From a virus: DNA of 64,000 bases. The DNA lies in IMG/VR virus record IMGVR_UViG_3300034101_003783, positions 1 through 64,000 of that record. The stretch is one strand, 5' to 3'. This document shows positions 39,526-62,835 of this stretch, piece after piece (position 1 is the first letter of the stretch; each line of letters begins with the position of its first letter). The translations under genes were made by a program, and so were the position numbers. Below the pieces are notes generated by a model. It was not told the DNA's origin and did no database searches. It saw nothing but the letters and a program-made list of their open reading frames with translations.

Positions 39526-39870
39526 TTAATTATATACTCTTATTTCTATTGATACGTTATCTAATAAACCGTTTGTTTTTACTCCTGAAATGTTTTGAGT
39601 TCCAACATTAATTACATTATCACTTAATCTTCTTATTTTAATGAAAGCAATATCTATTGGTGTTATAAAAAGCATTGTCTTTCCTGAAACAAAATCGTTA
39701 TTTGTTGATGTTAATAAATACTCCCCTGTACTATCATATGTCCAAGTCATAGTAGACACAAAAGTATTATCTAACACAGTTACTGATGGTGGGGATGTTC
39801 CTACTTGACTTAAATTTGCAACATAAGTCTTATATGTATTATTACTTGATGTTATATATTTTGTTGACAT
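39526..39870 (-). CDS. Small beta-sandwich fibre-associated protein
   Basis: YVANLSQVGTSPP..TVLDNT, TGEY, ends IEIRVYN; coupled to the fibre gene. Confidence 0.65.
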   Translation of the reverse strand: MSTKYITSSNNTYKTYVANLSQVGTSPPSVTVLDNTFVSTMTWTYDSTGEYLLTSTNNDFVSGKTMLFITPIDIAFIKIRRLSDNVINVGTQNISGVKTNGLLDNVSIEIRVYN

Positions 39871-42800
39871 TATGAGTTTACGTTTACTATAATTAAATTA
39901 TCAAGAGCATCAAAATAGCTCAATCTATTATTACCTCCAGAATTCTCAAATAAAGTACAATTATATGAATTATATACATGTGTTGCAGGTGAAAAATCAG
40001 TACCCGTAATTTGAGTTTGTGTTATATTATATTGAAAGTTAGGACCAACAATATTTCCTTGGAAGTCATTAAAAATATTATTATTATTAAAATTACTAGC
40101 AATTTGATTTCCTACTATGTGGTCGCCAATTTGATTATCGAAAATATTTGATCCCCATATATTACCAGACACAAAAGGTTGTCCACAAAAATTACCTATT
40201 GTATTGTGTTGGAAATCATTACCTATATTATTACCATAAAAAGAATCATTTGTATGATTAGATGAAAAGTTTGTTCCTACTTCATTAATCCAAGAAAAAT
40301 ACCCAATTCTGTTATCTGTTGCAAAATCAGCAAAAGTATTTAAATTAAAAAAGTACCCAATTTCATTATCAGCAAAATAAGAACCTAAAGTATTTTCATA
40401 AAATATATCAGCAATACGATTAAAATTAAAACCATCTGTGATAGTATTTCTACTACATCCATAACCTATAACATTATTAAAATATCCTAAATCTGATGTA
40501 TTAACTGTTACATTATATGTAAATGACTCACCTATCACATTTTCCGCAAAATTATTTCTTATTATGTTACCACCATCACCGTTATCTACCAAATCAAAAC
40601 CAAAATAATTACCAATAGTGTTTCCTGAAAATTTATCTAAGATAATATTTGATATTCCAGTTGTTTTATAACTACCAAAATTATTTCTAATAAAGTTATT
40701 TTGGAAATATGTACCTATTTGATTATTAATAAAAGTATTACCTATTAAATTATTTTGGGTGAAACCGCTAGCCAATGGCTCAATTGTGTATCCTGTTATA
40801 ACTGCGGATGACCCACTCAAATTATCTATTGTGTCGCCAACAGTTAAATCACCTATAATCAAATTTATTATCATTTCATCAACCCCATTATCACTAACTA
40901 CTTCAGCACTTCCACCAAAACCATCCTCAATTGTTTCACCAATATTAAATGTATTTATATCTGTTATGGTGATAGTCGCATCATTACCTCCTGTCGTTAT
41001 TGTAATAATGTCACCAACAGAATAGTATGTTCCGGCATTACTTATTGTTACACTAATTATAACACCAAAACCATCTGTTGTAATATCAACAGTAAGACCT
41101 ACTCCTGTTCCTCCGTATGTTGTTGGTACTCCTGTGGAATTTGAGTAACCTGATCCACCATTATTTAAGTTTATTGTTGTTGGAATTCCTTTTAATGTCG
41201 AATACCCTACTGTTGTTACAACCCCTATTAAGTTTGCTCCTGTATCAGTTAAACCATCATTTCCAAAATAATTACCAATATGGTTATTTTGGAAAAATCC
41301 ACCAATTATTTGTTTTTCGTTTGTACACCCAAAATAATCCCCAATATCATTTCCTTGAAAATTTGGCCCTACTGTGTTATTAACAAAATAATTTTTTATA
41401 TTATTAAAAATAAAATTGTCATCTATAACATTTTTGTTAAAACCATTACCTATATTGTTATTATATGTATTATTTGATATTTCATTGTCTTGAAAAAAAT
41501 CTCCTATTGTGTTACCTAAAGGTATAACCGAATCAGTCCCAAAGTTATTTCCAATAGTATTAGATTTAAAATTATTACCTATTCTATTATATGAAAAATC
41601 AGAACCATTATCACCTTTTTGTGCATATATTGAATTCCAGGTTGTACCTGAAGGACTTAATAGTGAATTAAAACTACCCTCAACGGCTGAATTATAAATA
41701 CCACCCCCAATATTAGATCTTGTTATTTCTAAAAATCCAGGTATAATAACATCTATTTCAGAACCAAAATCTGTTTTAGTAAATAATAATTTGTTACCTA
41801 TAGGTGTTCCTACAGAATCATATTCTTGTCTTTCGTATTGGAATCCTCCATTATTTATTGACCATTGTTTAAAAATAATTGAAAAGTATCTGTCTGGTAT
41901 GGTATTAACTTTCATTATTAGTTCTTTACCAACTATTAAATCATCTATCGAACCATCTAATGAATCATTAAAGGTTACATAATTTCTATTTGATATAGTA
42001 TTAAAATCACTAAAACCAAAAAAATAATTATTAATAGGAGAGTTTCCAAAAAACCCATCATTAATGACGTTACTACTAAAATTATAACTAAATAAATTTT
42101 TAGTGGCGTTATTTCCAATACTGTTGGAGACAAATCCATCACCTATCGTATTACTAGAAAACTTATTTTTTATTACATTTTCTTTAAACGAATCATCAAT
42201 TATATTTGCAAAAAATCCCTGACCAATGTCATTCCCTTCAAAGACACCATAAATTATATTTTTTGTAAAATCATCATAGATATTATTATTATTAAAATTT
42301 GAAAATAGTCTAATGTTATCAAAATTATCTTTTATTGTGTTAGATGAAAATACAAAATTATTTTTGTTAAAGGCATCCCCTATAATATTGTTAGTAAAAT
42401 AATTACCTATTTGATTATCTGAAAATTGGTTATATATGATATTATTAATAAAATTATTACCTATTTGATTATCTGAAAACGAGGTTGAGTTTTCACCTAA
42501 AAATCTATTCGATTCAAATACATCACCAATAATATTATTGGAAAGATTACAATTTATTATATTATTATTAAAATAATAACCAAAAACACACTCATCGATA
42601 TCATTTGTTGAGACGTTTTCAAAACAATAATCCCCCCAAACGTTATTTTCATTGTCGGTACCAAAAGTATTATTGTAACTATTGTTACCTATTTTATTAT
42701 TATTGTATTCACCCTCTAAAAATAAATTATTTGATAGTAAAAAAATACCTGACCCAATATTTTGATAATTATTAGCATAATCACCAACGTAATTATTAAT

Positions 42801-43670
42801 GGCATAACTATTAAGGATTGCATCACCAAAAGTAGTTTTTTCGTAAAAATCATTAGTTTTAACATTTGTTTGTTTATAACTAAAATAACCATTAGTACCA
42901 TTTGTTTCTTCTATACCTAAATAAAAAGATAAATTGTTACCTGTTGTTATGGTGTCACCAGTTATTGTCATAGAGGTATCATTACTTATATTAACAACCT
43001 CAAAAAAACTAGGATTTATTCCATCAACATATATTACATCACCTAAACTTAAATCTGTAAATTTTGTATTTGTACCTGTAACAACACCACCTAATGCAAT
43101 GTCAATTAAACCATTTAATGGTAAATCAAATCTATAGGTATATAATTTGTATCTCTTAAATAATATGTTTTTATGGTCATAGTCTGTTCTATTATTAAAC
43201 TCATCAATTCTTTCTGTAATTCTCCCAAAAGCAACACCGTTTGTTACTTCAGTTGTAGAAAAAGTCCAATCATATCTTATTCTGTCAAAGGGGTGTGATG
43301 ATTGATAAGCAACTTCACTTATTGTATTAATGCTTGTTGCTAAAACCATAATAGGTTCTACCGGTCCTTGTTTGTAATTTCCTGTTGTTATTGGGTTATT
43401 GTTTACATCAAAATTAGGTTGATCATAACAAGTTCTAAAATTTACAATGTTATAGAAGGCACCAGGTATTAAACTATTATTTGTAATTAAATTTACAAAT
43501 GATGCGTATGTAATAGGGGTCGCACTTAAAACCCAACTTTGGAAATCTATTATTGGTGTGTGTTTTGTGGTTCCTGTTTGTACATCATAATTAACTATTG
43601 GCATAATGTCTGCCGATGTGTACCCTGTATTTCCTACATATGGTAATTGTGATATTCTTTTATTTGCCAT
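39870..43670 (-). CDS. Tail fibre/spike-like protein with long Asn-rich beta-helix repeats
   Basis: 1266 aa; N-terminal KRISQLP; dozens of ~10-aa N.IG..F.. repeats. Confidence 0.75.
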   Translation of the reverse strand: MANKRISQLPYVGNTGYTSADIMPIVNYDVQTGTTKHTPIIDFQSWVLSATPITYASFVNLITNNSLIPGAFYNIVNFRTCYDQPNFDVNNNPITTGNYKQGPVEPIMVLATSINTISEVAYQSSHPFDRIRYDWTFSTTEVTNGVAFGRITERIDEFNNRTDYDHKNILFKRYKLYTYRFDLPLNGLIDIALGGVVTGTNTKFTDLSLGDVIYVDGINPSFFEVVNISNDTSMTITGDTITTGNNLSFYLGIEETNGTNGYFSYKQTNVKTNDFYEKTTFGDAILNSYAINNYVGDYANNYQNIGSGIFLLSNNLFLEGEYNNNKIGNNSYNNTFGTDNENNVWGDYCFENVSTNDIDECVFGYYFNNNIINCNLSNNIIGDVFESNRFLGENSTSFSDNQIGNNFINNIIYNQFSDNQIGNYFTNNIIGDAFNKNNFVFSSNTIKDNFDNIRLFSNFNNNNIYDDFTKNIIYGVFEGNDIGQGFFANIIDDSFKENVIKNKFSSNTIGDGFVSNSIGNNATKNLFSYNFSSNVINDGFFGNSPINNYFFGFSDFNTISNRNYVTFNDSLDGSIDDLIVGKELIMKVNTIPDRYFSIIFKQWSINNGGFQYERQEYDSVGTPIGNKLLFTKTDFGSEIDVIIPGFLEITRSNIGGGIYNSAVEGSFNSLLSPSGTTWNSIYAQKGDNGSDFSYNRIGNNFKSNTIGNNFGTDSVIPLGNTIGDFFQDNEISNNTYNNNIGNGFNKNVIDDNFIFNNIKNYFVNNTVGPNFQGNDIGDYFGCTNEKQIIGGFFQNNHIGNYFGNDGLTDTGANLIGVVTTVGYSTLKGIPTTINLNNGGSGYSNSTGVPTTYGGTGVGLTVDITTDGFGVIISVTISNAGTYYSVGDIITITTGGNDATITITDINTFNIGETIEDGFGGSAEVVSDNGVDEMIINLIIGDLTVGDTIDNLSGSSAVITGYTIEPLASGFTQNNLIGNTFINNQIGTYFQNNFIRNNFGSYKTTGISNIILDKFSGNTIGNYFGFDLVDNGDGGNIIRNNFAENVIGESFTYNVTVNTSDLGYFNNVIGYGCSRNTITDGFNFNRIADIFYENTLGSYFADNEIGYFFNLNTFADFATDNRIGYFSWINEVGTNFSSNHTNDSFYGNNIGNDFQHNTIGNFCGQPFVSGNIWGSNIFDNQIGDHIVGNQIASNFNNNNIFNDFQGNIVGPNFQYNITQTQITGTDFSPATHVYNSYNCTLFENSGGNNRLSYFDALDNLIIVNVNS

Positions 43671-43688
43671 TTTTTTATTTTATAAATA

Positions 43689-44156
43689 TTAGATTATTAA
43701 TAATGTTGTCGTTGTTGTAACAGGTAATGGTGGTTTAGGCCCTACACAACAAGGAAATTCAGAAACGTAACAACTATCGTATGGTAAGTCATCCGCAATA
43801 AAACTTTCTTGTATATTTATATATAATTTATCTCTTATTGGTAATATTAAAACCCCATCACTATTTCTTAAAAGGAATTGACCTTCATACCTACCAACCT
43901 TTCTTGTGTCTTTATTTGTAAATTGATAATAAATATAATATTCAGGATCTGAGTTTGGGTCTATCATTGTTTTAGAAACAAAACCGGCAGGTCTTGTTAT
44001 TATTTTAGGTATACCAGTTTCAATGTCTACCATAGAAAAAAATATTGCAGAATTTTCTATCAATTCCATCATTCTATTATAATCACTACGACCATCTTTT
44101 ACAACCTGCATTTTAAGTAAGGGTAGTGTGGCGTTTTTTTTAATAAAAAATTCCAT
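43689..44156 (-). CDS. BppU-like baseplate/fibre adaptor domain protein with a Cys/Pro/Thr tail
   Basis: FFIKKNATLP.L, YQFT..DT...GRYEGQF; C-terminus PCCVGPKPPLPVTTTTTLLII. Confidence 0.6.
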   Translation of the reverse strand: MEFFIKKNATLPLLKMQVVKDGRSDYNRMMELIENSAIFFSMVDIETGIPKIITRPAGFVSKTMIDPNSDPEYYIYYQFTNKDTRKVGRYEGQFLLRNSDGVLILPIRDKLYINIQESFIADDLPYDSCYVSEFPCCVGPKPPLPVTTTTTLLII

Positions 44157-44184
44157 TAATCTTTTTTATTAATAAATATAACAA

Positions 44185-45855
44185 CTAACATTCTTTTCTT
44201 AATTGGCCATCATAAAAATCAAATCTATTATGTTCAGTTGGGGTTAGGAGTAAAACGGAAGGATTAATATTACCTTTTATTGTTTCTTGATAACAATGGC
44301 TCATTAATGTTTGTTCATAGGGGTTTTGGAATCTTGTTTTTAAATAACATTTATAGTTTCCTTCTTTTGTCATTAGAATTGGCCAATTTGAAAGATATAT
44401 TTCCCCGCTAGCATATGGTACTCCTTTGTGTGACTTTATGTGTTTAAACTCTAAATTAGGAGAGTTTGGGTCTAAACCTTGTTTTGGTAATGTTTTATTA
44501 TTAACCCAATGTATTTCTCTGAAACTTTGTGGTACATTATACCATGACCATTGTTTATCATGACTACCAAAAAATTCCGTAAAATTTAATTTCAAAAAAT
44601 CAAAATTTTCTTTTTTAATAATTTCTTGTGTTATATTAAATAAATTTTTTACATAACGATTAAATCCATTTTTACATAAACTAGATTCTTTATTATAGAA
44701 AGCCATATCATCCTCAAAAAAATAATAAGTAGATAAATCATTTTGTTCATTAAAATGTTCCGCAATAAATTGTCTACCACCAGTAATACCAATATTATTT
44801 TTTTTGATGTGGCTAAATCCGTACATATCACAAATCCTTAAGTATTCTTCTGTTGTTGTTAAATCTGTGGAATTATTTAATAAAAATTTTTTAGTTTTTT
44901 TTATAAACGAAGGATCATAATCCATCATAGACTCAACCAAAACCTCAAACTGTTTTGGGGAATTAAATGTAATAACGTATAAACCAACACCATTATTATC
45001 TATAGTTTGATCTATTTTTTGTCTTTTATTTTCAAATAAAACAATGTTATTTTTTATGTCCTCAAAAAATTTATATAGTAGTCCGTTTGAATCAATTTTT
45101 ACATGATCAATTAAATTAGAATATTTGTATGTTAGAATTGTAAATAAACTTTCTTCAGTTCCCATGTAACCTGATGACAAAGTATCGTACATTAATTGAT
45201 AATACAAACCATTTAATTGTGATATAGTTTCTCTTGTTCCACCAAAAAATCCACCCCTTGCCACCATATTTGGTTTTTTACCAATGTATTCAGACATAGG
45301 TCCTATTGAAAACCCATGTATCTCTGTGTTTGTTTCGTATGGAAAACAAATAAATGTAAATTTATTAAAAGTATTGTTTATTTTTTCTAAAACTTTGTCA
45401 TGGGTGAAATACCCAACATTCACCGTGTTTGTAATTCCCGCATCAACCCAATATAATTTTTCTGAATTAAATGGGTCAAGTAACATGGCATCATGTAGTA
45501 AAAACATTTTAGACATAACAAGTGGGTTATACATATCTAACTTACCTTGTGTTGAATCTTTTAACCAACCTACTTGGTTATACCATTCTGGATTATTTCT
45601 TATATTTTGTATTTTATTATAAAAGTCATTATTTTTAAACCAACTTAAATCTCTTAATATAAATCTTGTTTTGTTTTGATCTCTACCTTGAGATATAACA
45701 AATTTTTGAAGTTCAGGGTCCCCAAAAATTATCATGTTACAATCAATTTTTAATGTTTCTTTAAATCTTTCTAAATAGAAATCGAAATTTCTTGACCAAC
45801 CTTCGGTCATATTACCTCTACCTATATCCCACAAACCTGTAACTAATGTTATCAT
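44185..45855 (-). CDS. Two-domain glycosyltransferase: HtrL/YibB-like N-terminus + GT-A-like C-terminus
   Basis: ITLVTGLWDIGR, YN....SK, YWVDAG, GGFFGG, TEE; second domain NIGITGGRQ, FFEDD. Confidence 0.75.
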   Translation of the reverse strand: MITLVTGLWDIGRGNMTEGWSRNFDFYLERFKETLKIDCNMIIFGDPELQKFVISQGRDQNKTRFILRDLSWFKNNDFYNKIQNIRNNPEWYNQVGWLKDSTQGKLDMYNPLVMSKMFLLHDAMLLDPFNSEKLYWVDAGITNTVNVGYFTHDKVLEKINNTFNKFTFICFPYETNTEIHGFSIGPMSEYIGKKPNMVARGGFFGGTRETISQLNGLYYQLMYDTLSSGYMGTEESLFTILTYKYSNLIDHVKIDSNGLLYKFFEDIKNNIVLFENKRQKIDQTIDNNGVGLYVITFNSPKQFEVLVESMMDYDPSFIKKTKKFLLNNSTDLTTTEEYLRICDMYGFSHIKKNNIGITGGRQFIAEHFNEQNDLSTYYFFEDDMAFYNKESSLCKNGFNRYVKNLFNITQEIIKKENFDFLKLNFTEFFGSHDKQWSWYNVPQSFREIHWVNNKTLPKQGLDPNSPNLEFKHIKSHKGVPYASGEIYLSNWPILMTKEGNYKCYLKTRFQNPYEQTLMSHCYQETIKGNINPSVLLLTPTEHNRFDFYDGQLRKEC

Positions 45856-45863
45856 TTTGTTTT

Positions 45864-46544
45864 TTATTCTTTATTAAGTTTATCATATATAAAATTATGG
45901 TAGTTACCCTGTATCCAAACATCGTAATTAACAGGACCATTAGGTTGTAAAGTTGATACAAACCCAACGGCATGATTTATCATTAAAGGTATTGTAGTTA
46001 GAACTTTAAACCCCTTTGAAGATAATAAACATAGATGGTCATCTATTGCAATATAATCTTTTTTGTAATTAATATTATCAATTAAATGTTCATAAGCTCT
46101 TTTTTTTATTAGATAGGCCCATGAACCAGTACTTTTAGTTACCGAATATAGATTGTCCGTCACATATTTTAAATCTTCCTTTGGGTTACACCCAAGCAAT
46201 ACAACATCCCACTCAACAGATTTTAAATCTAAAACAACTTTTTTTAATACTTCCGTAAATTCTTTTTTTTCTTTTGGGTAATAACAAATATCCTCAATAT
46301 TAAAATCATCTTCCCCCACAAAAATTATTTCTAAATTTTCTTTTTTTGCAATCTTAAATAATTCTAAATGACTTTTAGTACAAGAATAAACTTTTAAATC
46401 ATCTGTTTGGGCAGGAAACCTAAATAAGTTTTTTATCTCATATTTAGAAATCAAACTATTAACATGGATTAACCTATCTACACTACTATCAAGATTTATA
46501 AAAAAACCCTTGTTGGCTAAAACCTCATTTAAAATACTAAACAT
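45864..46544 (-). CDS. Glycosyltransferase family 25-like
   Basis: FINLD...DR, SCTKSH, EDD, S.AYLI, IDD. Confidence 0.8.
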   Translation of the reverse strand: MFSILNEVLANKGFFINLDSSVDRLIHVNSLISKYEIKNLFRFPAQTDDLKVYSCTKSHLELFKIAKKENLEIIFVGEDDFNIEDICYYPKEKKEFTEVLKKVVLDLKSVEWDVVLLGCNPKEDLKYVTDNLYSVTKSTGSWAYLIKKRAYEHLIDNINYKKDYIAIDDHLCLLSSKGFKVLTTIPLMINHAVGFVSTLQPNGPVNYDVWIQGNYHNFIYDKLNKE

Positions 46545-46547
46545 TTT

Positions 46548-47795
46548 TTATAAATTACCCGTTATTCTATTACACCACCCTTTTGATTTAGAGTAAGGCC
46601 AAACAACCCAATACTTTGGTTTTTCTGTTGTATTAAATTCTCTCCATACTTTACAGTATCCATCAGGATCCTTTTTCATTCTAAGGATTTCATTAGTGTC
46701 CGCATCTTGTCTGTGAAGAGTCTCATCCTTACTATTATGAAATGCAACAACCCAAAACTCATAATCATTTTCTGGAACATCGTTAAACGAAACATCAATA
46801 CAATGTTTAAAGATCATTGAAAAACTATTAATCCATTCTTCCTCGTTCTTATATTCATATGGGTTTGGTGGATATTTCTTATCTATTGTATATTGTTGTA
46901 CTGCTCTTTTAGAGAATAAAATACCCGAATATTTTTCATAGTCTTTAATCGTTCTTTCAGACCCCATACCATAAATCCCAATATCCTCATTTAAAGTTTC
47001 ACCGTCAACACCTAAAAGTTTTCTATTTTTAGAATGTGACGAATCATTTTTCTTATACCATTCTTTATCATCATCCCATTGTTTTGTTCTACCTTTTCTT
47101 GTGTATTCATGCCAAATTACAACTTTGTGTGGGTGAAATAAATCATACCCATGGGTATAAGACCTTACCGCAATTGATATTTCTTCTCCATGAAAATAAT
47201 ATTCAGGGTCATGTTGTACTTCTTTTGTAAATTCACCTAATGTAAAACAAAAATGAGCCGAGTAGAATCTTGCAGGAATAGGACCCGTTAAGTCTTTCCA
47301 ATTAGGAATCACTTCGGGTAAAAAGAAAACACAACCTTCAGGTGTAAATCTATCAAACGCCATTCTCCATGGTTCAGTTACTCTACCTTGTGGGTCGTTA
47401 TCAGGATCAAAAGACGAAACATATCCGGTTAATAAAGGTTTTTTATAACCCTTATTCTGTAAATCTGTAATCATACTAATAAGAGTAGAATCCCAACCCT
47501 TCTCAAACCTCATATGAGAATCTATTTGTAATGTGTACTCCTCATTGTCGTATTGTTGTTGTGTAAGATTTCTTGCCCAACAAACTCCTTTTGATTCTAC
47601 GTACGGAATATTTAAAATTTTAAATCTCTTATCATTATCAAACTCAGAAAGATCATCAAATTTATCTTCTTCATTAAATTGTCTTGCAATTGAAAAAACT
47701 AAGTTCTCAGGGTTTTTTGCTTTATCTAAACAATCTTTGATTGTTGGTACTAATTGTGGATCTCTGTAAGACGCAATCTGTATAAAAATTTTCAT
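46548..47795 (-). CDS. GT60-like polypeptide N-acetylhexosaminyltransferase (Pfam 'GlcNAc' type)
   Basis: IFIQIASYRD, G..WAR, LQIDSHMRF (DxH), F.GEE.....R.YTHGYDL.HP, H.Y.R, G.G.ERT..DYE. Confidence 0.85.
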   Translation of the reverse strand: MKIFIQIASYRDPQLVPTIKDCLDKAKNPENLVFSIARQFNEEDKFDDLSEFDNDKRFKILNIPYVESKGVCWARNLTQQQYDNEEYTLQIDSHMRFEKGWDSTLISMITDLQNKGYKKPLLTGYVSSFDPDNDPQGRVTEPWRMAFDRFTPEGCVFFLPEVIPNWKDLTGPIPARFYSAHFCFTLGEFTKEVQHDPEYYFHGEEISIAVRSYTHGYDLFHPHKVVIWHEYTRKGRTKQWDDDKEWYKKNDSSHSKNRKLLGVDGETLNEDIGIYGMGSERTIKDYEKYSGILFSKRAVQQYTIDKKYPPNPYEYKNEEEWINSFSMIFKHCIDVSFNDVPENDYEFWVVAFHNSKDETLHRQDADTNEILRMKKDPDGYCKVWREFNTTEKPKYWVVWPYSKSKGWCNRITGNL

Positions 47796-47843
47796 TTACT
47801 TTTTTTGTAAAAAATAATAAACAAATAAAATAAAATAAATAAT

Positions 47844-48314
47844 TTAAAGACAAAGATTAGAAACACAAGGAGGTCCTGTTACAATATTAACGTTAACTAA
47901 ATTTGTAACGTTTGAAGCACAAAAATATGTTGGCAATATGTGACCTATTGGTACTAATGTATTAATATTACCAAAACAATCTACAAAATCTAACGTTCCA
48001 CCTTCTATCGTTAATGCGATTGCCTCTATACAGTTACATTCCGTAGGTAAAGGGCTTGGGGTTGGTGTGGGTGTTGGTGTAGGGCTTGGTGTAATACATG
48101 TATATAACTCAAACCTATCACAACCTTCCCCATCTATTATTTTAACTAACAAAGATCCTGACGTATTTAATGGTGACGGAACAGTAAAAGTGTAAGACGG
48201 TGGACAAGAAGTAAGTCCCGTTATATAAACACATATTGTATTTGTTATGTCACAAACATAAACATCATAAGGAGATGTACCAGTAATAACGTTTATGGTT
48301 ATTTCATTTGACAT
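47844..48314 (-). CDS. Cys-rich virion protein with a Pro/Thr linker
   Basis: Ig-like N-terminal domain, [17 protein letters not shown], Cys-rich C-terminal domain. Confidence 0.7.
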   Translation of the reverse strand: MSNEITINVITGTSPYDVYVCDITNTICVYITGLTSCPPSYTFTVPSPLNTSGSLLVKIIDGEGCDRFELYTCITPSPTPTPTPTPSPLPTECNCIEAIALTIEGGTLDFVDCFGNINTLVPIGHILPTYFCASNVTNLVNVNIVTGPPCVSNLCL

Positions 48315-48644
48315 TTAATTATTATTGATTATTTGATTGTAAACTAATAAAATCCCCTCACCATAAGAAGGATACTGATTCATTTCATTTTTAGTTTTTA
48401 TAATTTCCACAGATTTTATTTCTCCGTCTAATAAATAAAATTTAACCGTTTCCCAATCACTAATATCTTCAGGATTTTTCACATAAGTTAAATCATTTAT
48501 CATACAAATAAAAAAATCATTTAATAACGTAATTAAATTATTTTGATCATCTAAAAAAAATGTTTCGTTCGGGACTGAGTAAGTGTTGATATTTTTATCA
48601 ACATTATACAACTCCATAAAAAAGTATTTTTGATTGTTTGCCAT
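48315..48644 (-). CDS. Hypothetical protein
   Basis: 109-aa ORF packed in the operon. Confidence 0.6.
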   Translation of the reverse strand: MANNQKYFFMELYNVDKNINTYSVPNETFFLDDQNNLITLLNDFFICMINDLTYVKNPEDISDWETVKFYLLDGEIKSVEIIKTKNEMNQYPSYGEGILLVYNQIINNN

Positions 48645-48648
48645 AATT

Positions 48649-49626
48649 TTAATTTTTTATTATTATTATATATAATTCTCCTTGTCTTGAGTTGCCCGAA
48701 ACCCCAGATACCGCCGCCCCTTGAGCCGCAGTACTTGTATTAACGTACCTAGCCCTAATATCAATTGTATGACTTCCTGCACTTAAATTTAATATAGAAC
48801 TTAATGACCATGTTGTATTAGTAAAGGCCACATTTATAGTGTTTGGGTTCATTGTGTTTATGTGATTAAATCCACCATCTGTTTGTAAAGATCCATCAAC
48901 AAAAATACCAATGTAAGATGTAAATGTATAATTAGACCCATTGGTGTTACCTATACCTCCTATTGAAGACACATAAACAGAACAATTACTAGGGACGGTA
49001 AAGGTTTGGGATAATCCTGGAACAACAAAATATGCTGTAGTTGCATTTGATAAAGGAAGAGATGCGTTACCATATAGTTTATATGTTGTCTGACCTAACC
49101 CAGCAACTAATTTACCTGATGAATCAAAAGATGCTGCTTGATTTGGTGTTCCTGTTGTATTACCTACATTTACTGTAGAAGAACTAAAAGTTGTTGCAAT
49201 TAGTCCTTGTGCGGACGTATTACCGGTTATATTTAAATTTCCATTAACGGTTAAACCTGTTACAGTATTAATTGTTTGAGTTAAATCGGGTTGACCATTA
49301 TTTTGTTTTATTGTGAAAACATTATCACTATATGTAAAACCTGTAACATATGTGTCAGGATCAATTGGTAAATTTTGATATGTTGTTGCCGATATGATAT
49401 TTGTATTTATACCGTTTGTAAAAGAAGTAGATCCGGTAACTGTTCCTCCGCTTAATGGTAAAAAATAGTTATAAGAATCTATTATGACATAATCTTTAAC
49501 ATCATCTATCTTTGTGTTACTTGTGGTTCCTGTCGGATTTAAATAGTTAACAAAAACTAATAAATCAATTGGTGTATAGCCGGTATTTCCGATATAAGGA
49601 AACTGTGATATTTTAACATCAGACAT
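48649..49626 (-). CDS. Short fibre/appendage protein
   Basis: KISQFP N-terminus, LPLSGGTVTG fibre motif, C-terminal beta-sandwich (L.AGSHTI..R). Confidence 0.7.
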   Translation of the reverse strand: MSDVKISQFPYIGNTGYTPIDLLVFVNYLNPTGTTSNTKIDDVKDYVIIDSYNYFLPLSGGTVTGSTSFTNGINTNIISATTYQNLPIDPDTYVTGFTYSDNVFTIKQNNGQPDLTQTINTVTGLTVNGNLNITGNTSAQGLIATTFSSSTVNVGNTTGTPNQAASFDSSGKLVAGLGQTTYKLYGNASLPLSNATTAYFVVPGLSQTFTVPSNCSVYVSSIGGIGNTNGSNYTFTSYIGIFVDGSLQTDGGFNHINTMNPNTINVAFTNTTWSLSSILNLSAGSHTIDIRARYVNTSTAAQGAAVSGVSGNSRQGELYIIIIKN

Positions 49627-49651
49627 TTTTTATTTTTTTATTATAAATAGT

Positions 49652-50320
49652 TTATTCTGCAATTATGTACTGACTTATTTCTGATAGAATTTTATTCCCA
49701 TCTTCACTAACAATATAAAATACGAATGCCGTTACTGTTGGTGTTGGTGTACTAGTAACTGTTGGTGTTGGGGTATTAGTTCCTGTCGGAGTAGGTTTTG
49801 GTGTATTAGTTCCTGTCGGAGTAGGTGTTGGTGTACATCCACAAGGGTTTGTACAAGTTTGAGTTGGTTTAGGTGGTTTAACTGTTGGTGTTGGTGTTGG
49901 GTTATTACAACCACAAGGGTTTGTACAAGTCTCACTTGGTGTTGGTGTTATTGTTGGAGTAACGCTTATTGTTGGAGTAACTGTAGGTGTTGGTGTTGGT
50001 ACTTTACATGGATCCAAAGTTGTTGTAGGAGTATTAGTTGGTGTTGGGGTTGGTGTTTGAGTTCTTGTTGGAGTATTAGTTGGTGTTGGGGTTGGTGTAG
50101 ATCTAGGGACATTAATTATGTTCACACATTTACTACCATTTACTAAAATTGTATATGTTCCGTAAATTTCTCTTGGTGGGTTTAATTCGTTAGGAAAAAA
50201 TACAAAAGGTAATATAACTTGACCTAAATTTATTGTTATTAAATCATTATCCGGTTTAAAAAGTACTGTTACACTTTCTCCACTAAAATTTATACTTTCT
50301 ATTGTAATACTTAAACTCAT
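49652..50320 (-). CDS. Mucin-like Pro/Thr-rich virion protein
   Basis: About 125 aa of PT repeats with CTNPCGC x2; C-terminal IVSEDG..ILSE motif. Confidence 0.75.
49730..50100 (-). repeat. Coding Pro-Thr microrepeats with 30-bp and 42-bp duplications
   Basis: gtattagttcctgtcggagtaggt x2; ggagtattagttggtgttggggttggtgt x2; ccacaagggtttgtacaagt x2. Confidence 0.85.
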
Positions 50321-52503
50321 ATAATAACTGTAGTTGTTGTAGTAATATTATCATTAATTTGATATGTTAAATCATTTGTTGGACAAAATTTAGTATCACA
50401 AACAGGGCAGTCAGGATCAAACAAATCAAATTTATCTTTTAAAATAATAAAATTATGTTTTATTTCATCAGAAGATAAAGGATCAATATACATTCTAAAT
50501 TGAGATATACCACCTTCAAAAGTACCCCCAAAATTTTGTTCTAATAAAATATTTGTGTTTAACCCAGATAAACTAGTTCCACTTAAAATATTATTTGGTA
50601 GACATTCAGGATCTTGTATGTAATTTGATGTTAATGCGGAACAAGAAGAAAATGTTAGGTTCTCATGTAATCCTTGTGTACCACCTCCCCAAGAAATATT
50701 AAATGGTACACCTATTTGTTTTTCTTTATCGGTAAATAAACCTCTAGGTATTACCTCTTCAAAGTCCTCAATGGTATATATCTTTTTCCCATTAACATAA
50801 ATTTTTAATCTACCCAACCTGTATTTTTTTTCGTCTAACCATATATCATTTAAATTAACTAACTCAATTAATTCTCCATCTTTATCTAAATGAGTTAGTG
50901 GAGGTTTTATAAGATCAACAGAATTATTAGATAAAGAATCTAAATATTCAAATTTAGTTATATCCCCTAATCCACCATAAAATTTTAAATCACAGAAATC
51001 AAACCATGAATATCTTTCCCATACAACATTAACTAAAAACCAATGTTCTTCATCTAAGAAGGCTGGATTGACAACCTCACAATATGGGTATATTGGGGGT
51101 GAGCAATACTCATCAATAGTATACCCTGTTACATATGTTTGTCCTGTTGTGCAAGTTCCTGTTGTTTCACATCCACCAGTAAACCTTAAAACTTTAACCC
51201 CAATTTGTGGATTTTTTGGATTTCCACATAATTTAAAAGATATATTATTAGACATAACATCAAACAATGGGTCTGTCTCACAGGTGTATTCCACAGACGT
51301 AAAACCTGTATATTCACAACTTGTACATTCATCACATTTATAACATTTTGTACAACTTGGGGTACATATAGGTGTTTGCACATTACAATTAGGTGTTGGG
51401 CTTGGGGTTGGTGTTGGGGTTGGAGTTGGTATTACCACAGTCTTACAATTATGTATCTGACATTCCCACCCACAAGACTCACAAGGAGATTCGTTACAAC
51501 CACAACCACAAGTTACTGAAACCTCAAGGTTACCATTACATAACCTACAACCATAATTTACATGTGGATCATGTTGATTATTTTTAGATCTAGGAGGGTA
51601 AACATATATACACCTACTATTAGTTACAGTCTTATCACAACAAGCACATGTTGACGGACAACCACTTAGAGATTCTGTAACTCTAGTATATCCTGTCAGA
51701 CAATTTGGGTGTCCGTCAGCATGGTGGTAAAATTTATTTTCCGCTCTTGTACCAAAATAAAAAAAGGTGTTTTTATTTTTTGGGTACAATAAATTTAATG
51801 TGGTTTCATTTGGTAATGGGGAGTATTCATCAACAAGTCTTGGTTTTAATAACATCTCAACGGACCAACCTTTAGATGTTCTTTCTGGTAAAACTTCATA
51901 ATCAAAACCAAATAACTTATAAAAACCTTGATAAAATCCACCATATAGTTCATGGTATTTACCTATAATAGGATCATTTTTACTTACAATTTCGTATAAA
52001 GTATTTTTAGATATTCCTGAAAATCTATTATTATTTTCTGTATATCCCGTTACTTGGAATAACTTAAATCTTCTATCAAAATGTAATCTATCAAATTTTA
52101 AAAAATCATCATATAAACCTTTTGTATAATTTAAAGTCTCTCCGGTCATTTTTTCTACCAACCCATTGTCTACCCCCGTTAATCCAACATCACATAGTGT
52201 TGTTGAGGAAAAACAAGTTAAATCTTCATTATTTGGGTTGTAATAATTTTGTGAAACAAAAACATTGTTTGGATTAAAATTTTTATATGTTAATGTTAAT
52301 CCTGTTTGTGAGGTTAAAGGGTTGTTAATATCAATATTAATTGGTAATTTATTACCATAAGTTTCTGCGATTAAGTATGGTGAAAATACAACTTCTTCTT
52401 TATAGTTTCTTTCATCAGAAGCTAAAGACATATCCATAGATTCAGAAACAAGATTAATTTTGTATTTCTGATACACATATTGATTAATATTTTGTTCCGC
52501 CAT
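50317..52503 (-). CDS. Virion protein with a probable LamG/concanavalin-like fold interrupted by Cys-rich and PT inserts
   Basis: [34 protein letters not shown]; Cys clusters; [13 protein letters not shown]; TTTTTVII end. Confidence 0.65.
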
Positions 52504-52515
52504 TCTTTTTATTTA

Positions 52516-52542
52516 ATAAATACACCAAATCAAAGTATTTAT
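52516..52542. promoter_or_regulatory. Back-to-back divergent TATTTAT elements
   Basis: ataaatac (52516, serving 50317..52503) and gtatttat (52535, serving 52557..53549) in a 53-bp gap. Confidence 0.6.
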
Positions 52543-55388: not shown

Positions 55389-56606
55389 ATGGAAAAAATT
55401 AATGTATTAGTATTACCTTCAGATAAATCTGGTGTTGGTAAGTATAGGTCCGTAGATCCTCATGTTAAACTACAAAACATGTATCCAGATGAGTTTCATG
55501 TTGATATAGATTATCAACCAAACGTAAATGATATAAACTACTTTAAGAAATATCAAATTATCCATTTTCATAGAAGTATTGGTCAAGATTATGAAAAATC
55601 AGTAGAACTTATTAATAAGCTAAAAAGTGAAGGTATTATTGTTATTGGTGATATTGATGATTATTGGTTACCAACAAAAGAGCATCCTATACATCAATTA
55701 ATCGTACAAAATAAAATGCACGAAAAAATTGTATCTAATTTAAAGGCGGCATCTTATGTAACAACTACAACTGAAATTTTTGCAAATGAAATTAGAAAAT
55801 TTAATAAAAATGTTATAGTGTTACCAAACGCAATAGACCCGCAAGATCCTCAATATAATGAACCAACATTACCTTCAGAAAAAATTAGAGTTGGTTGGTT
55901 GGGAGGTTCGTCTCACTTACATGATTTAAAATTATTAGAGGGTATGGTTAGTAAGTTATCTAATCTACAAGAAAAATTACAATTTTATGTTTGTGGGTTT
56001 GACACTAGAGGTGTTGTTACGGAAATAAATAAACAAACAGGTGAAAAAAAACAAAGACCTATTAAACCTGAAGAAACTGTTTGGGTTAAATACGAACAAA
56101 TTTTTACTAACAACTACCAGATAGTATCACCAAAATACAAAGAATTTTTAGATAAATTTAATGATGAAGAATATTTTGGTAGCACAGAAAAAGAAAATTA
56201 CATTAGGGTTTGGACAAGACCGGTTACGTCTTACGCAAAGAACTACTCGAAGTTTGATATATCTTTATCCCCAATTAAAAACCATATTTTTAATAGAATG
56301 AAATCACAATTAAAAGTAATTGAGGCTGGTTTTTATAAAAAAGCGATAATTGCATCTAATGTAGGTCCGTATACTATTGATTTAAAACACGCACTTAAAA
56401 ACGGTCAATTTACTGATGGAAACGCTCTTTTAGTTAATGAAAATAATAACCACAGTGATTGGAGTAAAAATATAAAAAAATTGGTCGAGAACCCTAATAT
56501 GATTACAGACCTTGGGGAAAGATTATATGAATCAGTAAAAGATAAATATGATTTAAATAACGTCACAAAAGAAAGATCTTCATTTTACAAATCACTAATT
56601 AAATAA
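55389..56606 (+). CDS. GT-B fold glycosyltransferase (GT4-like)
   Basis: GVGKYR..P, DIDDYW, LPNAID, VGWLGGSSH..DL, DISLSP, FN..KSQLK.IEAG, IASNVGPY. Confidence 0.85.
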   Translation: MEKINVLVLPSDKSGVGKYRSVDPHVKLQNMYPDEFHVDIDYQPNVNDINYFKKYQIIHFHRSIGQDYEKSVELINKLKSEGIIVIGDIDDYWLPTKEHPIHQLIVQNKMHEKIVSNLKAASYVTTTTEIFANEIRKFNKNVIVLPNAIDPQDPQYNEPTLPSEKIRVGWLGGSSHLHDLKLLEGMVSKLSNLQEKLQFYVCGFDTRGVVTEINKQTGEKKQRPIKPEETVWVKYEQIFTNNYQIVSPKYKEFLDKFNDEEYFGSTEKENYIRVWTRPVTSYAKNYSKFDISLSPIKNHIFNRMKSQLKVIEAGFYKKAIIASNVGPYTIDLKHALKNGQFTDGNALLVNENNNHSDWSKNIKKLVENPNMITDLGERLYESVKDKYDLNNVTKERSSFYKSLIK

Positions 56607-56611
56607 AAAAA

Positions 56612-57343
56612 ATGATTAATATACCAATTACAAAAATTTTATTCTTGGATATTGAAACTGTTGGTGGATGTCCTGATTATGAATCTTGTCAAAAGTTTAG
56701 TCCTGAAATTGCAGACCAATATGTAAAATATTATGATTGGTTTAAAAAAAGATTTCCTGAAGATCATATTGAGGTACCAAAAACAAAAATAGAATCGGAT
56801 AAAAGAATGAATGAGGTCTTTAAAAAAAGAGCGGCTCTTGTACCAGAATTTGCAAAAATTGTTTGTGTTTCAGTGGCCTTTGTTTTAGAAAATGGTGAAA
56901 CTAAAAAACAATCTTTTTACGGTGATGACGAGAAAAAATTATTAAAGGAAGTTAGGACTCTTCTTGACCGTTGTGAAAAACTTGGGTTTTTTCTTTGTGG
57001 TCACAATCTAAAAAATTTTGATATTCCAATGTTAGCAAAAAGAATGATCATAAATGGAATTCGTCCCTCAAAAATTCTTCCATCTTATGATACAAAACCT
57101 TGGGAAATAAAGGCAATTGACACAAAAGAAATTTGGCAATATGGAGCGTATACGTCAATAGGATCTTTAGATTTATTATGTTCTTGTTTAAATATCCCAA
57201 CCCCAAAAGATGGTGAAGTTACAGGATCTTCTGTTCACAAATCATACTGGGAAGACCAAAAAATAAAAGAAATTGCGGAATATTGTGAGAAGGATGTTGA
57301 AGTTTTAATTGACGCAATAATGAAATTAAAAAGTTTAGAATAA
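56612..57343 (+). CDS. Stand-alone DnaQ-like 3'-5' exonuclease (PolB-exo related)
   Basis: FLDIET, GHNLKNFDIP, SLDLL, YCEKDV. Confidence 0.88.
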   Translation: MINIPITKILFLDIETVGGCPDYESCQKFSPEIADQYVKYYDWFKKRFPEDHIEVPKTKIESDKRMNEVFKKRAALVPEFAKIVCVSVAFVLENGETKKQSFYGDDEKKLLKEVRTLLDRCEKLGFFLCGHNLKNFDIPMLAKRMIINGIRPSKILPSYDTKPWEIKAIDTKEIWQYGAYTSIGSLDLLCSCLNIPTPKDGEVTGSSVHKSYWEDQKIKEIAEYCEKDVEVLIDAIMKLKSLE

Positions 57344-57948
57344 TGAATAAAAATGATTTAAATAAAATTTTATCTCAAACAAAAGATCTTGAGAAATTAT
57401 TTGAGGGTACTGAATTAAACGATGATGTTGAGTTAGATGCTCTTATGAATGAGTATGGTATAGATTTAAATGAATTAGAAAAAGTTTTTACTGATGATAT
57501 ACCAAAAGTTAAAATGAATATTAAACTTATCCATAAAGATGCTATATTACCTAAATTTGCTTATGAAACGGACTCCGGTGTTGATTTATATTCCGTTGAT
57601 GAACACATAATACCACCTATGGGAAGGTCATTAATTTCAACAGGAATTGTAATTGATGTTCCTGAAAACCATGAAATTCAGATTAGATCAAAAAGTGGAT
57701 TGGCATTAAACCAAGGTTTATTTGTTTTAAATTCACCTGGAACTGTAGATCAAGGGTATACGGGCGAAATAAAAGTAATACTATTTAACACAAACAATGA
57801 AGAGTTTAAAATTACAAAAGGAATGAAAGTCGCTCAAGCGGTTTTGTGTCCTGTTGTTTGTGGTAAATGGGTAGATATTGTAAAAGTTTCTGAAGTAGAA
57901 AATAAAGATAGGTCTAACAATGGGTTTGGAAGTACAGGATTAATTTAA
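57343..57948 (+). CDS. dut: Trimeric dUTPase with an acidic N-terminal extension
   Basis: SGVDL, RSKSGLA, NSPGTVDQGYTGEI, KVAQAV, R..NGFGSTG. Confidence 0.93.
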   Translation: MNKNDLNKILSQTKDLEKLFEGTELNDDVELDALMNEYGIDLNELEKVFTDDIPKVKMNIKLIHKDAILPKFAYETDSGVDLYSVDEHIIPPMGRSLISTGIVIDVPENHEIQIRSKSGLALNQGLFVLNSPGTVDQGYTGEIKVILFNTNNEEFKITKGMKVAQAVLCPVVCGKWVDIVKVSEVENKDRSNNGFGSTGLI

Positions 57949-57954
57949 ATTTAA

Positions 57955-58650
57955 ATGGTCACAGTTTATACAGTAACTTATAACGAAGAGTTAATTATTG
58001 AGTTTTTTATAAATCACTATAGAGAAAATTTTCCAAACTGTAAAATTGTAATATTTGATAACTATTCAACAGACAAAACTGTAGAAATCGCAAAATCATT
58101 TGGTTGTTGTGTAATATTTTTTGATACTAATAATAAGTTTTCAGATAAAAAACATATTGAAATAAAAAATAGTTGCTGGAAAGATTCTGAAACTGAATGG
58201 GTTGTTGTGTGTGATTGTGATGAACTAATCCAAATTAATGAAGAACAATTAAAAAAAGAACAAAAAAACGGACATACAATCTTCAAATTTAACGGATATA
58301 ATTTAATGAATCATAATGATGGTAACTTAGAAGATATTTCCTATGGGTGGCCTGATGAAGGGTACGACAAAATTTTATTATTTAATAAAACAAAAATTAA
58401 AGAAATAAACTACAATTATGGTTGTCACGAATCAAATCCGGTTGGGATTTTAAACTATTGTAAAAATTATAACATGTTTCACTATAATTTTTTGGGTAAA
58501 AATTATACAATTAATAGATATAAAAATTTTTCAGAAAGACTATCTGAAGAAAATATAGAACTAAGGTTAGGTTATCACTATTTTAGTGATGAACAAGAAA
58601 TTAATAAATTATACGATAATAATAAAGGATTTTTAATTAAGTTAAAATGA
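57955..58650 (+). CDS. GT-A fold glycosyltransferase (GT2-like)
   Basis: YNEE, DNYSTDKT, WVVVCDCDE, GCH. Confidence 0.8.
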   Translation: MVTVYTVTYNEELIIEFFINHYRENFPNCKIVIFDNYSTDKTVEIAKSFGCCVIFFDTNNKFSDKKHIEIKNSCWKDSETEWVVVCDCDELIQINEEQLKKEQKNGHTIFKFNGYNLMNHNDGNLEDISYGWPDEGYDKILLFNKTKIKEINYNYGCHESNPVGILNYCKNYNMFHYNFLGKNYTINRYKNFSERLSEENIELRLGYHYFSDEQEINKLYDNNKGFLIKLK

Positions 58651-60158: not shown

Positions 60159-60160
60159 AT

Positions 60161-60811
60161 ATGGCAAATGGAATATATAAAATAACAGAAGAGTTTGAGC
60201 AGGCACTTTCTAATTACACTTGTGCCCCTTATGTTATAACAGTTGATAATCAATCTAATGCATTATTTTTGTCGTTATATTATGAAAAAAATATAAAAAA
60301 ATCTATAGATGTAGACACAATTACAATACCATCAAGAACGTACCCATCTGTTCCTTGTGAAATAATTCATGCAGGATTAAATGTTAATTTTAAATCGGTT
60401 GAGGGTAAAACTTTAAAAGGGTCTTACAATTTAGAGGGTAGTAATGTTTGGGATTCGGCATTAAGCTTTACTTATAATATGTATAAACCAAATACACACA
60501 TGTGTGTTTCATTTACTGGCCCCTATAAGCATTTTAAATTATCAAAAGGAGGAGCAATTTTAACTGACGATCATGATGCATATCTTTGGTTTAAAAGAGC
60601 CAGATATAGTGGAAGGAGAGAATGTTCATACCATGATGATAATTTTGATATGTTAGGTTGGAACTTTTATATGATGCCTGAGTTAGCATCAAGAGGTTTG
60701 TTATTAATGAATCAATTTTATAAAGGAGAAACCCCAAAACATAATGAAGATATAGAAATGCCATATCCAGACCTATCTAAATTTGAAATTTATACGAAAA
60801 AAAATATATGA
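60161..60811 (+). CDS. Short DegT/DnrJ/EryC1/StrS-family PLP aminotransferase
   Basis: FE..L..Y, AL.L.L, TY.SV, DSA, SF...K (PLP lysine), GGAILTDD, GWNF.M. Confidence 0.8.
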   Translation: MANGIYKITEEFEQALSNYTCAPYVITVDNQSNALFLSLYYEKNIKKSIDVDTITIPSRTYPSVPCEIIHAGLNVNFKSVEGKTLKGSYNLEGSNVWDSALSFTYNMYKPNTHMCVSFTGPYKHFKLSKGGAILTDDHDAYLWFKRARYSGRRECSYHDDNFDMLGWNFYMMPELASRGLLLMNQFYKGETPKHNEDIEMPYPDLSKFEIYTKKNI

Positions 60812-62267: not shown

Positions 62268-62278
62268 AAATAAAAAAA

Positions 62279-62830: not shown

Positions 62831-62835
62831 TAAAT

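Follow-up and report, generated by a model that had tools for sequence, protein, structure and literature searches.

A GT60 glycosyltransferase gene set among Thr/Pro-tract genes of a jumbo myovirus: a candidate phage-encoded system for mucin-type O-glycosylation

Mucin-type O-glycosylation, in which N-acetylhexosamine (HexNAc) is placed on dense Thr/Pro tracts, is taught as a process of the eukaryotic Golgi, and GT60 as a glycosyltransferase (GT) family of protists. What, then, would a phage do with a GT60-like enzyme encoded among proteins that carry Pro-Thr (PT) repeats and runs of threonine? The question is raised by a 64,000-nucleotide stretch of viral DNA, called the window here, with which a 104-kb virus record of IMG/VR begins (IMGVR_UViG_3300034101_003783; CheckV completeness 33%, G+C about 29%). 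It holds the GT60 gene, a GT25-like gene and a gene for a two-domain protein with an HtrL domain (the HtrL protein), together with open reading frames (ORFs) designated w155, w156, w222 and w728 that contain the tracts (Table 1). On balance, our comparisons of genes favour the reading that this cassette encodes a cytoplasmic mucin-type O-glycosylation of threonine in PT and poly-Thr tracts of the virion.

The original prediction called the enzyme GT60-like, and both profile and structure searches agree. The protein matches Pfam PF11397 'GlcNAc' (CAZy GT60) with an E-value of 3.6e-73 and 247.5 bits against a cut-off of 21, in two stretches (profile positions 2-44 and 97-349), and a phage glycosyltransferase PHROG at E 1e-166; a sequence search of the PDB gave nothing meaningful. 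An AlphaFold (AF2) model made from 43 homologues (predicted local distance difference test, pLDDT, 96; predicted template modelling score, pTM, 0.91) has a GT-A fold nearest to the catalytic domain of the GT27 polypeptide N-acetylgalactosaminyltransferases (ppGalNAc-Ts), and the best solved structures found by Foldseek are all ppGalNAc-Ts. Residues D92, H94 and H229, forming a D92-x-H94 motif with a downstream histidine, are invariant in 43 homologues of 34-82% identity; the offset of the structural alignment (residue 1 of the model at residue 136 of GalNAc-T2) maps them to D224, H226 and about H359, and on that offset they would be the equivalents of the DxH...H manganese site of GalNAc-T2. 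With a score above the PF11397 cut-off, a GT27-like GT-A fold and a DxH motif with distal His, the GT60 assignment is solid at the level of profile and model. The protein has no transmembrane (TM) or hydrophobic segment and is acidic (pI 5.6, net charge about -10). GT60 enzymes start mucin-type O-glycans with alpha-linked N-acetylglucosamine (GlcNAc) in Dictyostelium and Trypanosoma cruzi, and in the cytoplasm GT60 modifies hydroxyproline (Hyp) of Skp1 (PMC8724618). The T. cruzi activity is Mn2+-dependent and accepts KPPTTTTTTTTKPP (PMC3769586), and all characterised GT60 enzymes transfer alpha-GlcNAc to a polypeptide hydroxyl (PMC8724618, PMC3769586). By analogy, we propose that the phage protein is an initiating polypeptide O-HexNAc transferase, with GlcNAc as the probable donor sugar.

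The association of GT60 with PT tracts extends well beyond this window. IMG/VR was scanned for (PT)7 and for a random 14-mer, and the resulting records were then searched for PF11397: the family was present in 10 of 45 (PT)7 viral records and in none of the 42 random ones (Fisher p=0.0012). Identity of the ten proteins so found to the present GT60 is 29-68%, and a PT-rich ORF lies within about 5 kb of six of them. Within the 17 kb that surround the GT60 gene, PT tracts amount to 5.6 aa/kb, compared with 0.92 aa/kb over the 104-kb record. Beside GT60 genes tract density reaches 7.2 aa/kb in this clade (56/60 loci with a tract) and 4.2 and 6.8 aa/kb in two other GT60 clades that were retrieved separately (38/55 and 26/48 loci); random IMG/VR loci gave 0.08 aa/kb (3/80), and the GT60 clades thus stand at 50-90 times background. 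Two genomes of the same phage family, G033 and G008 (capsid 76%, polymerase 62-77%), have a GT60 that is 36-41% identical to this one and neither the HtrL protein nor GT25. In G008 the GT60 gene (41% identical) lies 60 kb from the polymerase and w155, with four of the five PT tracts of the genome within 3.5 kb of it. In bacterial genomes a PT tract was found within 8 kb in 26 of 66 GT60 loci as against 1 of 66 reversed-sequence controls. In members of the Gemmatimonadaceae, Vicinamibacterales, Acidimicrobiaceae and Opitutaceae, in an alphaproteobacterium, in Sphingomonas and in a planctomycete, the PT tract belongs to an ORF of its own, which abuts or overlaps GT60; direct abutment occurs in at least six phyla. 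These bacterial pairings, which are phylogenetically independent of the phage family, are the strongest evidence that the GT60 family works on PT-tract proteins. The co-occurrence across relatives that had been put forward as a test of the original prediction is therefore found in several phage clades and in bacteria of different phyla, at levels far beyond those of the controls.

The enzyme also belongs to the fixed equipment of its phage family. None of the 80 IMG/VR loci retrieved with GT60 as the anchor departs from the order GT60 - (GT25) - HtrL protein - w155, and GT60 identity across them (71-92%) shows conservation like that of the DNA polymerase further downstream. When the polymerase served as the anchor instead, GT60 was present in 21 of 26 contigs, which is 21 of the 21 that cover the site; the other five stop 1-8.5 kb past the polymerase on the GT60 side. 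GT60 is therefore a core gene, and GT60-HtrL-w155 forms a fixed core cassette in a phage family that is widespread and has genomes of about 270-305 kb. Natural relatives lacking GT60 were sought as a test of whether the tracts depend on the enzyme, and none was found among the 26 polymerase-anchored contigs. Metagenomes contain more than 7000 clusters (90% identity) of GT60 matches at E<=1e-10, not all of them necessarily from this phage family, and 4626 matches among 50%-identity representatives at E<=0.001. Many GT60 representatives are giant proteins of up to 2461 aa with two to four tandem GT60-like domains (e.g. P0122-P0133). At the same genomic site G033 has its GT60 of only 36% identity with no HtrL protein (L227:9693-10943), and G028 has a 263-aa protein with an HtrL domain only (L223:5795-6586); these sequences indicate xenologous or paralogous replacement at the site, with a GT60-type enzyme staying in place.

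Among the products of the record are the T4-type major capsid protein, portal and large terminase, together with a tail sheath of 1113 aa, a DNA polymerase of family B, helicases and ribonucleotide reductase, and the relatives found through the GT60 gene reach 272-305 kb at 91-100% completeness. By these genes and sizes, the record is a fragment of a jumbo T4-like myovirus. Its host is likely a member of the Bacteroidota, because the Bacteroidota -7 element TAnnTTTG is enriched 5' of genes in a complete relative and because the closest 'bacterial' GT60 matches are contigs from metagenome-assembled genomes (MAGs) of Saprospiraceae, Chitinophagia and Cytophagaceae. The closest of them, at 62-71% identity, are L576 (a 230-kb contig of a Saprospiraceae MAG), L574, L575, L577 and L578, from bins labelled Saprospiraceae, Bacteroidia and Melainabacteria; they may be binned phage contigs of the same family, which makes them both a hint to the host and a contamination flag. 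With the 8.8-kb region as query, megablast found no match in the phage collection. The 'Moraphage' paper lists four core GT orthogroups without function, for a lineage that may or may not be the present one (PMC12619734).

Table 1. Coordinates of the features discussed in the text (positions in the window)
Feature	Position	Strand	Description or basis
GT60-family soluble glycosyltransferase, 415 aa	46548..47795	-	catalytic domain residues 1-328; extra beta-rich domain ~329-415
GT25-like glycosyltransferase, 226 aa, optional extender	45864..46544	-	PF01755; PHROG 2835 'glucosyltransferase'
Two-domain (HtrL) protein, 556 aa	44185..45855	-	HtrL/WlaTC domain 2-252; probable GT2-like GT-A domain ~285-556
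w155	43689..44156	-	conserved Ig-like (BppU_N-like) anchor domain 1-137 ending CC; variable tail, here PKPPLPVTTTTT + LLII
w156	47844..48314	-	two small Cys-containing domains joined by a 14-letter tract at residue 75
w109	48315..48644	-	small acidic ORF inside the block, no tract, no family match
w325	48649..49626	-	fibre-like; N-terminal ISQ(F/L)PY(I/V)GNTGYT shared with the 1266-aa protein; no PT tract
w222	49652..50320	-	middle ~125 aa of (T-P-T-x) repeats broken by CxNPCGC spacers
w728	50317..52503	-	Cys-rich modular (36 Cys); PT linker (13 letters) at residue 359; C-terminal TTTTT (721-725) + VII
w1266	39870..43670	-	Asn-rich repeat protein, same fibre-type N-terminus; downstream flank of the cassette
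Thr-rich sheath loop (TTTT...TTTSTTT...TTTTTTT)	26905..27009	-	residues 289-323, inside an insertion of the 1113-aa sheath
TATTTAT element, 22 nt before w155 start	44172..44178	-	8-mer enrichment
Like TATTTAT elements	43682-43688, 49643-49649, 52516-52522	-	upstream positions
Weak TATTTAT-like element before GT60	47835-47841	-	upstream position
Second glycan-gene array, ~16 kb	55389..64000, on to ~71,970 of the record (L004:1-7968)	+	profile matches

Which proteins would such an enzyme modify? Mucin-like tracts had been predicted in w222, w156, w728 and w155, and all are there. The prime candidate acceptor, judged by its sequence, is w222, with 96 tract residues in three blocks between residues 72 and 198; its family is kept in relatives with tracts of variable length. 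The N-terminal module of w156, of about 70 aa, is the most constant neighbour of GT60 across clades, and its homologues flank GT60 in G008, G019, G020 and G033. At its C-terminus w155 carries PPLPVTTTTT, and the T. cruzi acceptor KPPTTTTTTTTKPP is strikingly similar to PKPPLPVTTTTT at this end; in relatives the tail after the CC is nothing at all, poly-Thr, PT repeats, or PT repeats followed by distal modules. The top fold matches of the w155 N-domain are phage baseplate proteins, tied with generic Ig folds, and tblastn of w155 against the phage collection found no match; w155 is a candidate both for an acceptor and for a virion protein of the baseplate periphery. More generally, hypervariable modular proteins joined by PT repeats lie 5' of GT60, and in one relative about 900 of the 1526 residues of a protein are TPT-type repeat. 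For w728 a PDB sequence search gave nothing meaningful, and in its relatives a papain-like C1 module takes the place of the TTTTT+VII tag at the C-terminus (Peptidase_C1 in the homologues of L006 and L049). The PT-linked Peptidase_C1 module (L006:6119-8974, L049:13156-14220, L067:17159-18262) sits on the w728 family or on a w155 anchor, a placement that points to domain shuffling among PT-linked proteins. The tract-free w325 has no PDB homologue and no tblastn match in the phage collection.

A further candidate acceptor, again from its sequence, is the Thr-rich loop of the tail sheath, which would put the modification on a virion protein of many copies. The sheath is assigned through PHROG 23 (E 2.7e-56), and G001 has poly-T at the equivalent place in its own sheath. 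The sheath of T4 has about 660 aa; the one in the window (24532-27873) has 1113 and holds the loop in a Cys-containing insertion. In the tracts of related loci threonine outnumbers serine 8-10 fold (Thr 41-45%, Ser 4-6%) and in the window's own seven tracts about 3-fold, while the two are equal in the proteome overall. Two recurrent C-terminal forms were also seen. Three unrelated ORFs end in poly-Thr and a short aliphatic tail (window 43689-43721 and 50317-50349; record 90942-91112, that is L005:6942-7112, minus strand), one of these ends being TTTTTTKLV; w155- and w156-type proteins of relatives end in TTTTTTLFF, TTTTTTTTI or TTTTTTLFIG, and an end of this kind may be a tethered C-terminal docking strand. 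Paired acidic turns such as ...LTENGDVLNTENNDKIIY and ...FQDGDPFIFMDGTTYEFQ close many w155- and w156-type proteins after a PT or poly-T linker (the w155 tails of L016, L044, L050, L069 and L072; L225:7468-7752, L225:13548-13847, L226:8706-8993).

The timing of these genes can be judged from a promoter-like motif. An 8-mer search found TATTTAT(A/T) enriched 14-19 fold 5' of genes, mostly 18-26 nt 5' of the start codons of the sheath, terminase, capsid-region, fibre-like and PT genes; read on the coding strand, window-wide and in G001, the element is the T4 late promoter TATAAATA in reverse complement. The motif lies at -23 before w325, -19 before w728 and -18 before w1266. It is kept before w1266 in 5/5 relatives and before w155 in 37 of 40 distinct upstream regions, as it is before PT and fibre genes, and it precedes the polymerase in 2/23. 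Because of this conservation before w155, PT and fibre genes, the candidate acceptors look like late genes. We take the PT proteins to be parts of the virion, and the block around them to be a virion/fibre block, because of the late-type motif, the BppU-like fold of w155 (in a tie with Ig folds) and the Thr-rich loop of the sheath.

An experimental hint comes from another phage. Among cultured phages only four have a GT60 homologue (42-46% identity), all of them jumbo phages of Xanthomonas or Stenotrophomonas. One of these, XacN1, encodes its GT60 homologue ORF334 (45%) and a full-length homologue of the HtrL protein, ORF330 (38%), 4 kb apart, with a carbamoyltransferase between them and a GT9 near. 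The cluster directly follows baseplate wedge genes and a 3313-aa ORF with a PT tract, and PT tracts occur in large ORFs. At least two glycoprotein bands were stained with Schiff reagent in purified XacN1 virions, and the authors of that 2018 study suggested that phage GTs make them (PMC5852040, Suppl. Fig. S4); the bands were not identified there, and the paper makes no mention of GT60 or PT tracts (PMC5852040). XacN1 thus resembles the present phage in having GT60 and HtrL-type homologues just after baseplate genes, PT tracts and stained virion glycoproteins, and differs in being of another phage lineage (its polymerase is not similar and it has no w155) and in the carbamoyltransferase and GT9 of its cluster. 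The original prediction had known of no such system described in a large myovirus; virion glycoproteins had in fact already been reported for XacN1, and what holds of the claim is that no link to GT60 or PT tracts was made there.

The XacN1 bands also bear on a neighbouring explanation, namely that GT60 does glycosylate PT and poly-T proteins, and these are not virion proteins at all: they could be intracellular, released on lysis or displayed on the cell, or the main substrate could be a host protein modified during takeover. The main residual doubt that speaks for it is that the PT proteins are without structural homologues; moreover, the bacterial GT60-PT operons are unrelated to virions, and some PT-linked modules are enzymes (papain-like C1). 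The late-type motif is, however, common to PT genes, w155 and known structural genes, the PT proteins have neither a signal peptide nor a TM segment, and the top fold matches of w155 are baseplate proteins. The sheath itself has a Thr-rich loop, and in XacN1 the cassette follows baseplate wedge genes in a phage whose virions carry glycoproteins. We consider this explanation unlikely.

In virion glycosylation as we propose it, the first sugar would be extended by partner enzymes. The original prediction counted three co-directional GT genes, and all three ORFs exist at the coordinates given, on the minus strand, but GT25 is no conserved part of the set: of the 80 loci, 22 have it, and these come down to no more than 9 distinct loci of relatives, in some of which it is 27-32% identical or fused, and it is absent from G033 and G008. 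Its match to PF01755 GT25 (E 1.7e-6, 28.4 bits against a cut-off of 24) covers profile positions 69-197 only and no NCBIfam matched, so that its sequence makes it a weak member of the family. The HtrL protein, which always follows GT60 in this clade, had been described as HtrL-like with a GT-A domain. The first half of that description stands: residues 2-252 match PF09612 HtrL_YibB (E 4e-17, 63.1 bits against a cut-off of 24.1), at family level only, as TIGR02192 (the YibB equivalog) scores 66 bits, far under its cut-off of 265. The second half is backed in part. The C-terminal half is probably a GT2-like GT-A domain, because E381-D382-D383 is invariant in homologues, because a beta1 ... N-STD segment aligns, though not significantly, in hhalign of the HtrL-protein profile against a GT2 protein (E 0.2), and because 23 of 30 named clusters among its Atlas language-model look-alikes are GT2, at 0.97. 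Pfam has no match for this half, hhalign of the HtrL-protein profile against the GT60 profile was not significant (E about 0.2), and a PDB sequence search with the HtrL profile gave nothing meaningful. We propose, by analogy, that the protein is a bifunctional chain-extending enzyme. The second glycan-gene array has a GT4-like gene (59-88% identical in relatives), five GT2 domains, a DegT-like 216-aa fragment, WbqC, two methyltransferase domains, a GNAT, a BKACE, a hexapeptide acyltransferase and a GH130-like propeller, interleaved with a PolB-type exonuclease, a dUTPase and PhoH; no TATTTAT motif occurs inside it. From its gene content, it may supply or extend sugars for the GT60 cassette.

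A number of observations weigh against tract glycosylation in the virion. In many proteins PT tracts are known to be nothing but linkers, and GT60 is missing from 35 of the 45 (PT)7 viral records. All three phage GT60 clades that were tested come from a single phage family, which makes them less than fully independent, and the enrichment within genomes is modest (0.05-0.16 per genome), since 5-16% of random windows in four genomes match or exceed the GT60 window in tract residues. About one third of w155 homologues stop right after the CC with no Thr tail, and the GTs are still kept. The PT proteins w156, w222, w728 and others have no recognisable homologue in the PDB, PHROGs, Pfam or the phage collection. 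The late motif precedes the HtrL protein in 0/42 cases, GT25 in 0/9 and GT60 in 14/45 at an odd distance (-45 to -51), a distribution that neither proves nor excludes co-expression of GTs and acceptors, read-through from upstream late genes being possible. The HtrL_YibB and GT25 families, finally, are best known from the synthesis of lipopolysaccharide (LPS) and lipooligosaccharide (LOS).

Part of this evidence would fit another account, in which the PT tracts are plain flexible linkers, the GT cassette and the 16-kb sugar operon remodel a glycan of the host envelope (LPS/LOS, capsule or S-layer), for example as a block to superinfection or by receptor masking, and PT genes are adjacent simply as members of a shared hypervariable host-interaction region. 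Beyond the LPS/LOS associations of the two partner families, GT genes without the late motif and PT tracts in many viruses that have no GT60, this account can point to the large operon of nucleotide-sugar and GT2 genes 3 kb away and to a comparative study of jumbo phages that reads such GT clusters as capsular-polysaccharide modification (PMC7824862). Against it, the characterised GT60 enzymes all use polypeptide acceptors and the fold is nearest to ppGalNAc-T rather than to LPS enzymes, none of the three GT proteins has a membrane segment, and XacN1 virions stain for glycoprotein. Above all, envelope remodelling is insufficient because GT60 keeps its PT neighbours after the loss of HtrL and GT25 (G033, G008), after relocation (G008) and in bacterial operons where the PT ORF overlaps it. 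We therefore regard it as an improbable explanation of the cassette; that the HtrL and GT25 enzymes, and especially the separate 16-kb operon, remodel the host envelope is possible.

The position of GT60, 5-9 kb from the DNA polymerase both here and in XacN1, raises the further thought that the GTs hypermodify phage DNA, adding sugar to hydroxymethylated or hydroxylated bases as a protection from restriction. GT-A-fold DNA glycosyltransferases do exist in phages (bioRxiv 10.1101/2023.12.21.572611), and the complete relatives have a ThyA-like gene. These ThyA proteins are, however, canonical (thymidylate-synthase equivalogs matching TS structures, not hydroxymethylases) and encoded far from the cassette, and a search of four records for Tet/JBP, run without a positive control, found no match. 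The described DNA GT-A enzymes are JGT/TarP-like and not GT60/GT27-like (bioRxiv 10.1101/2023.12.21.572611), the phage GT60 is acidic, and the association with PT tracts would be left unexplained, above all in the bacterial operons. Because of the canonical ThyA, the missing Tet/JBP, the different enzyme type and the unexplained PT link, we set DNA hypermodification low, as very improbable.

Comparison with the protist enzymes (TcOGNT-2 of T. cruzi, the Golgi pp-alphaGlcNAcT of Dictyostelium, and Gnt1, which acts on Skp1) shows how far the analogy reaches. PF11397, the GT27-nearest GT-A fold and the DxH motif with distal His are common to them and the phage protein, and the Thr-rich, Pro-flanked tracts near the phage GT60 resemble the T. 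cruzi acceptor KPPT8KPP. The phage enzyme differs in being phage-encoded with close homologues in many bacteria, in its extra C-terminal beta-rich domain and in its partners, which are HtrL/WlaTC and GT25 instead of GT2/GT74 or GT77. The Gnt1 case suggests a variant in which proline of the PT tracts is first hydroxylated and the resulting Hyp then receives GlcNAc. Gnt1, the founding GT60 enzyme, works in the cytoplasm on Hyp, and the step after it falls to a bifunctional GT of two domains (PMC8724618), an arrangement that the soluble phage GT60 with its two-domain HtrL/GT2 protein resembles. A prolyl hydroxylase partner is missing, however: no prolyl 4-hydroxylase (PF13640) was found in this record (G000), in three relatives of 91-100% completeness or in XacN1, while control genomes gave matches, and the poly-Thr tags and the sheath Thr loop contain few or no prolines. 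The Hyp pathway was rejected because of that absence, and we hold it to be scarcely credible. With animal and apicomplexan GT27 ppGalNAc-Ts the phage enzyme has in common the layout of the metal site and dense Thr/Pro acceptor tracts; it is 10-16% identical to them, is not GT27 by sequence, has no membrane anchor, and no ricin-type lectin domain was detected in it.

Virion glycosylation by phage or viral GTs is as such a known kind of modification: mycobacteriophages and chloroviruses have it, and XacN1 gives a hint of it. As far as the account of Freeman et al. 2023 given in PMC12619734 goes, mycobacteriophage GTs are thought to O-glycosylate virion proteins at C-terminal stretches rich in Ser/Thr; the counterpart here is the poly-Thr tags at C-termini and the Thr tracts beside phage GTs. 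Going by the same account, the differences lie in the GT family, the host phylum, the setting in a myovirus of about 300 kb, and the acceptors, which here would be long PT linkers in fibre-like proteins instead of capsid or tail-tube tails. Chloroviruses and mimivirus are likewise large viruses whose own cytoplasmic GTs and sugar-nucleotide genes serve to decorate capsid or fibrils; they differ as eukaryotic viruses with N-linked or other chemistry, other GT families and no PT-tract logic. No earlier account of GT60 or PF11397 in phages, or of mucin-like virion glycosylation, came up in a search of the literature, and the GT60-initiated, mucin-type version tied to PT-repeat proteins is to that extent new.

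In the mechanism that we envisage, the soluble GT60 enzyme would use UDP-HexNAc (most likely UDP-GlcNAc) and Mn2+ to place the first sugar on threonine hydroxyls in late proteins of the phage itself, at their Thr-Pro repeats and poly-Thr runs. The proteins in question would be the modular fibre- or adhesin-like w156, w222 and w728, the tail of w155 and probably the Thr-rich loop of the sheath. The HtrL/GT2-like bifunctional protein, and in this phage the GT25-like enzyme too, would then extend that sugar. The outcome would be stiff, protease-resistant and hydrated 'bottle-brush' linkers that keep the variable distal modules off the particle.

GT60 is here a core gene, conserved to the level of the polymerase, in a very common family of aquatic phages of about 300 kb, and XacN1, which is cultured, has two of the enzymes and shows virion bands positive in periodic acid-Schiff staining, offers an experimental foothold. 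We suggest tentatively, with rather less assurance than we have in the local reading, that GT60 and Thr-Pro repeat proteins make up a widespread and hitherto undescribed prokaryotic and phage form of mucin-type O-glycosylation, which abundant freshwater jumbo phages keep in their core for building 'mucin stalks' on fibres, baseplate appendages and sheath, and with which protist GT60, and ultimately animal GT27, share ancestry. If the chemistry holds, phage virions would have a further, new class of modification, one that affects adhesion, host recognition, resistance to proteases and the stability of the particle; it would give a function to thousands of 'PT-linker' proteins, and the initiation step of mucin-type glycosylation would have a prokaryotic root.

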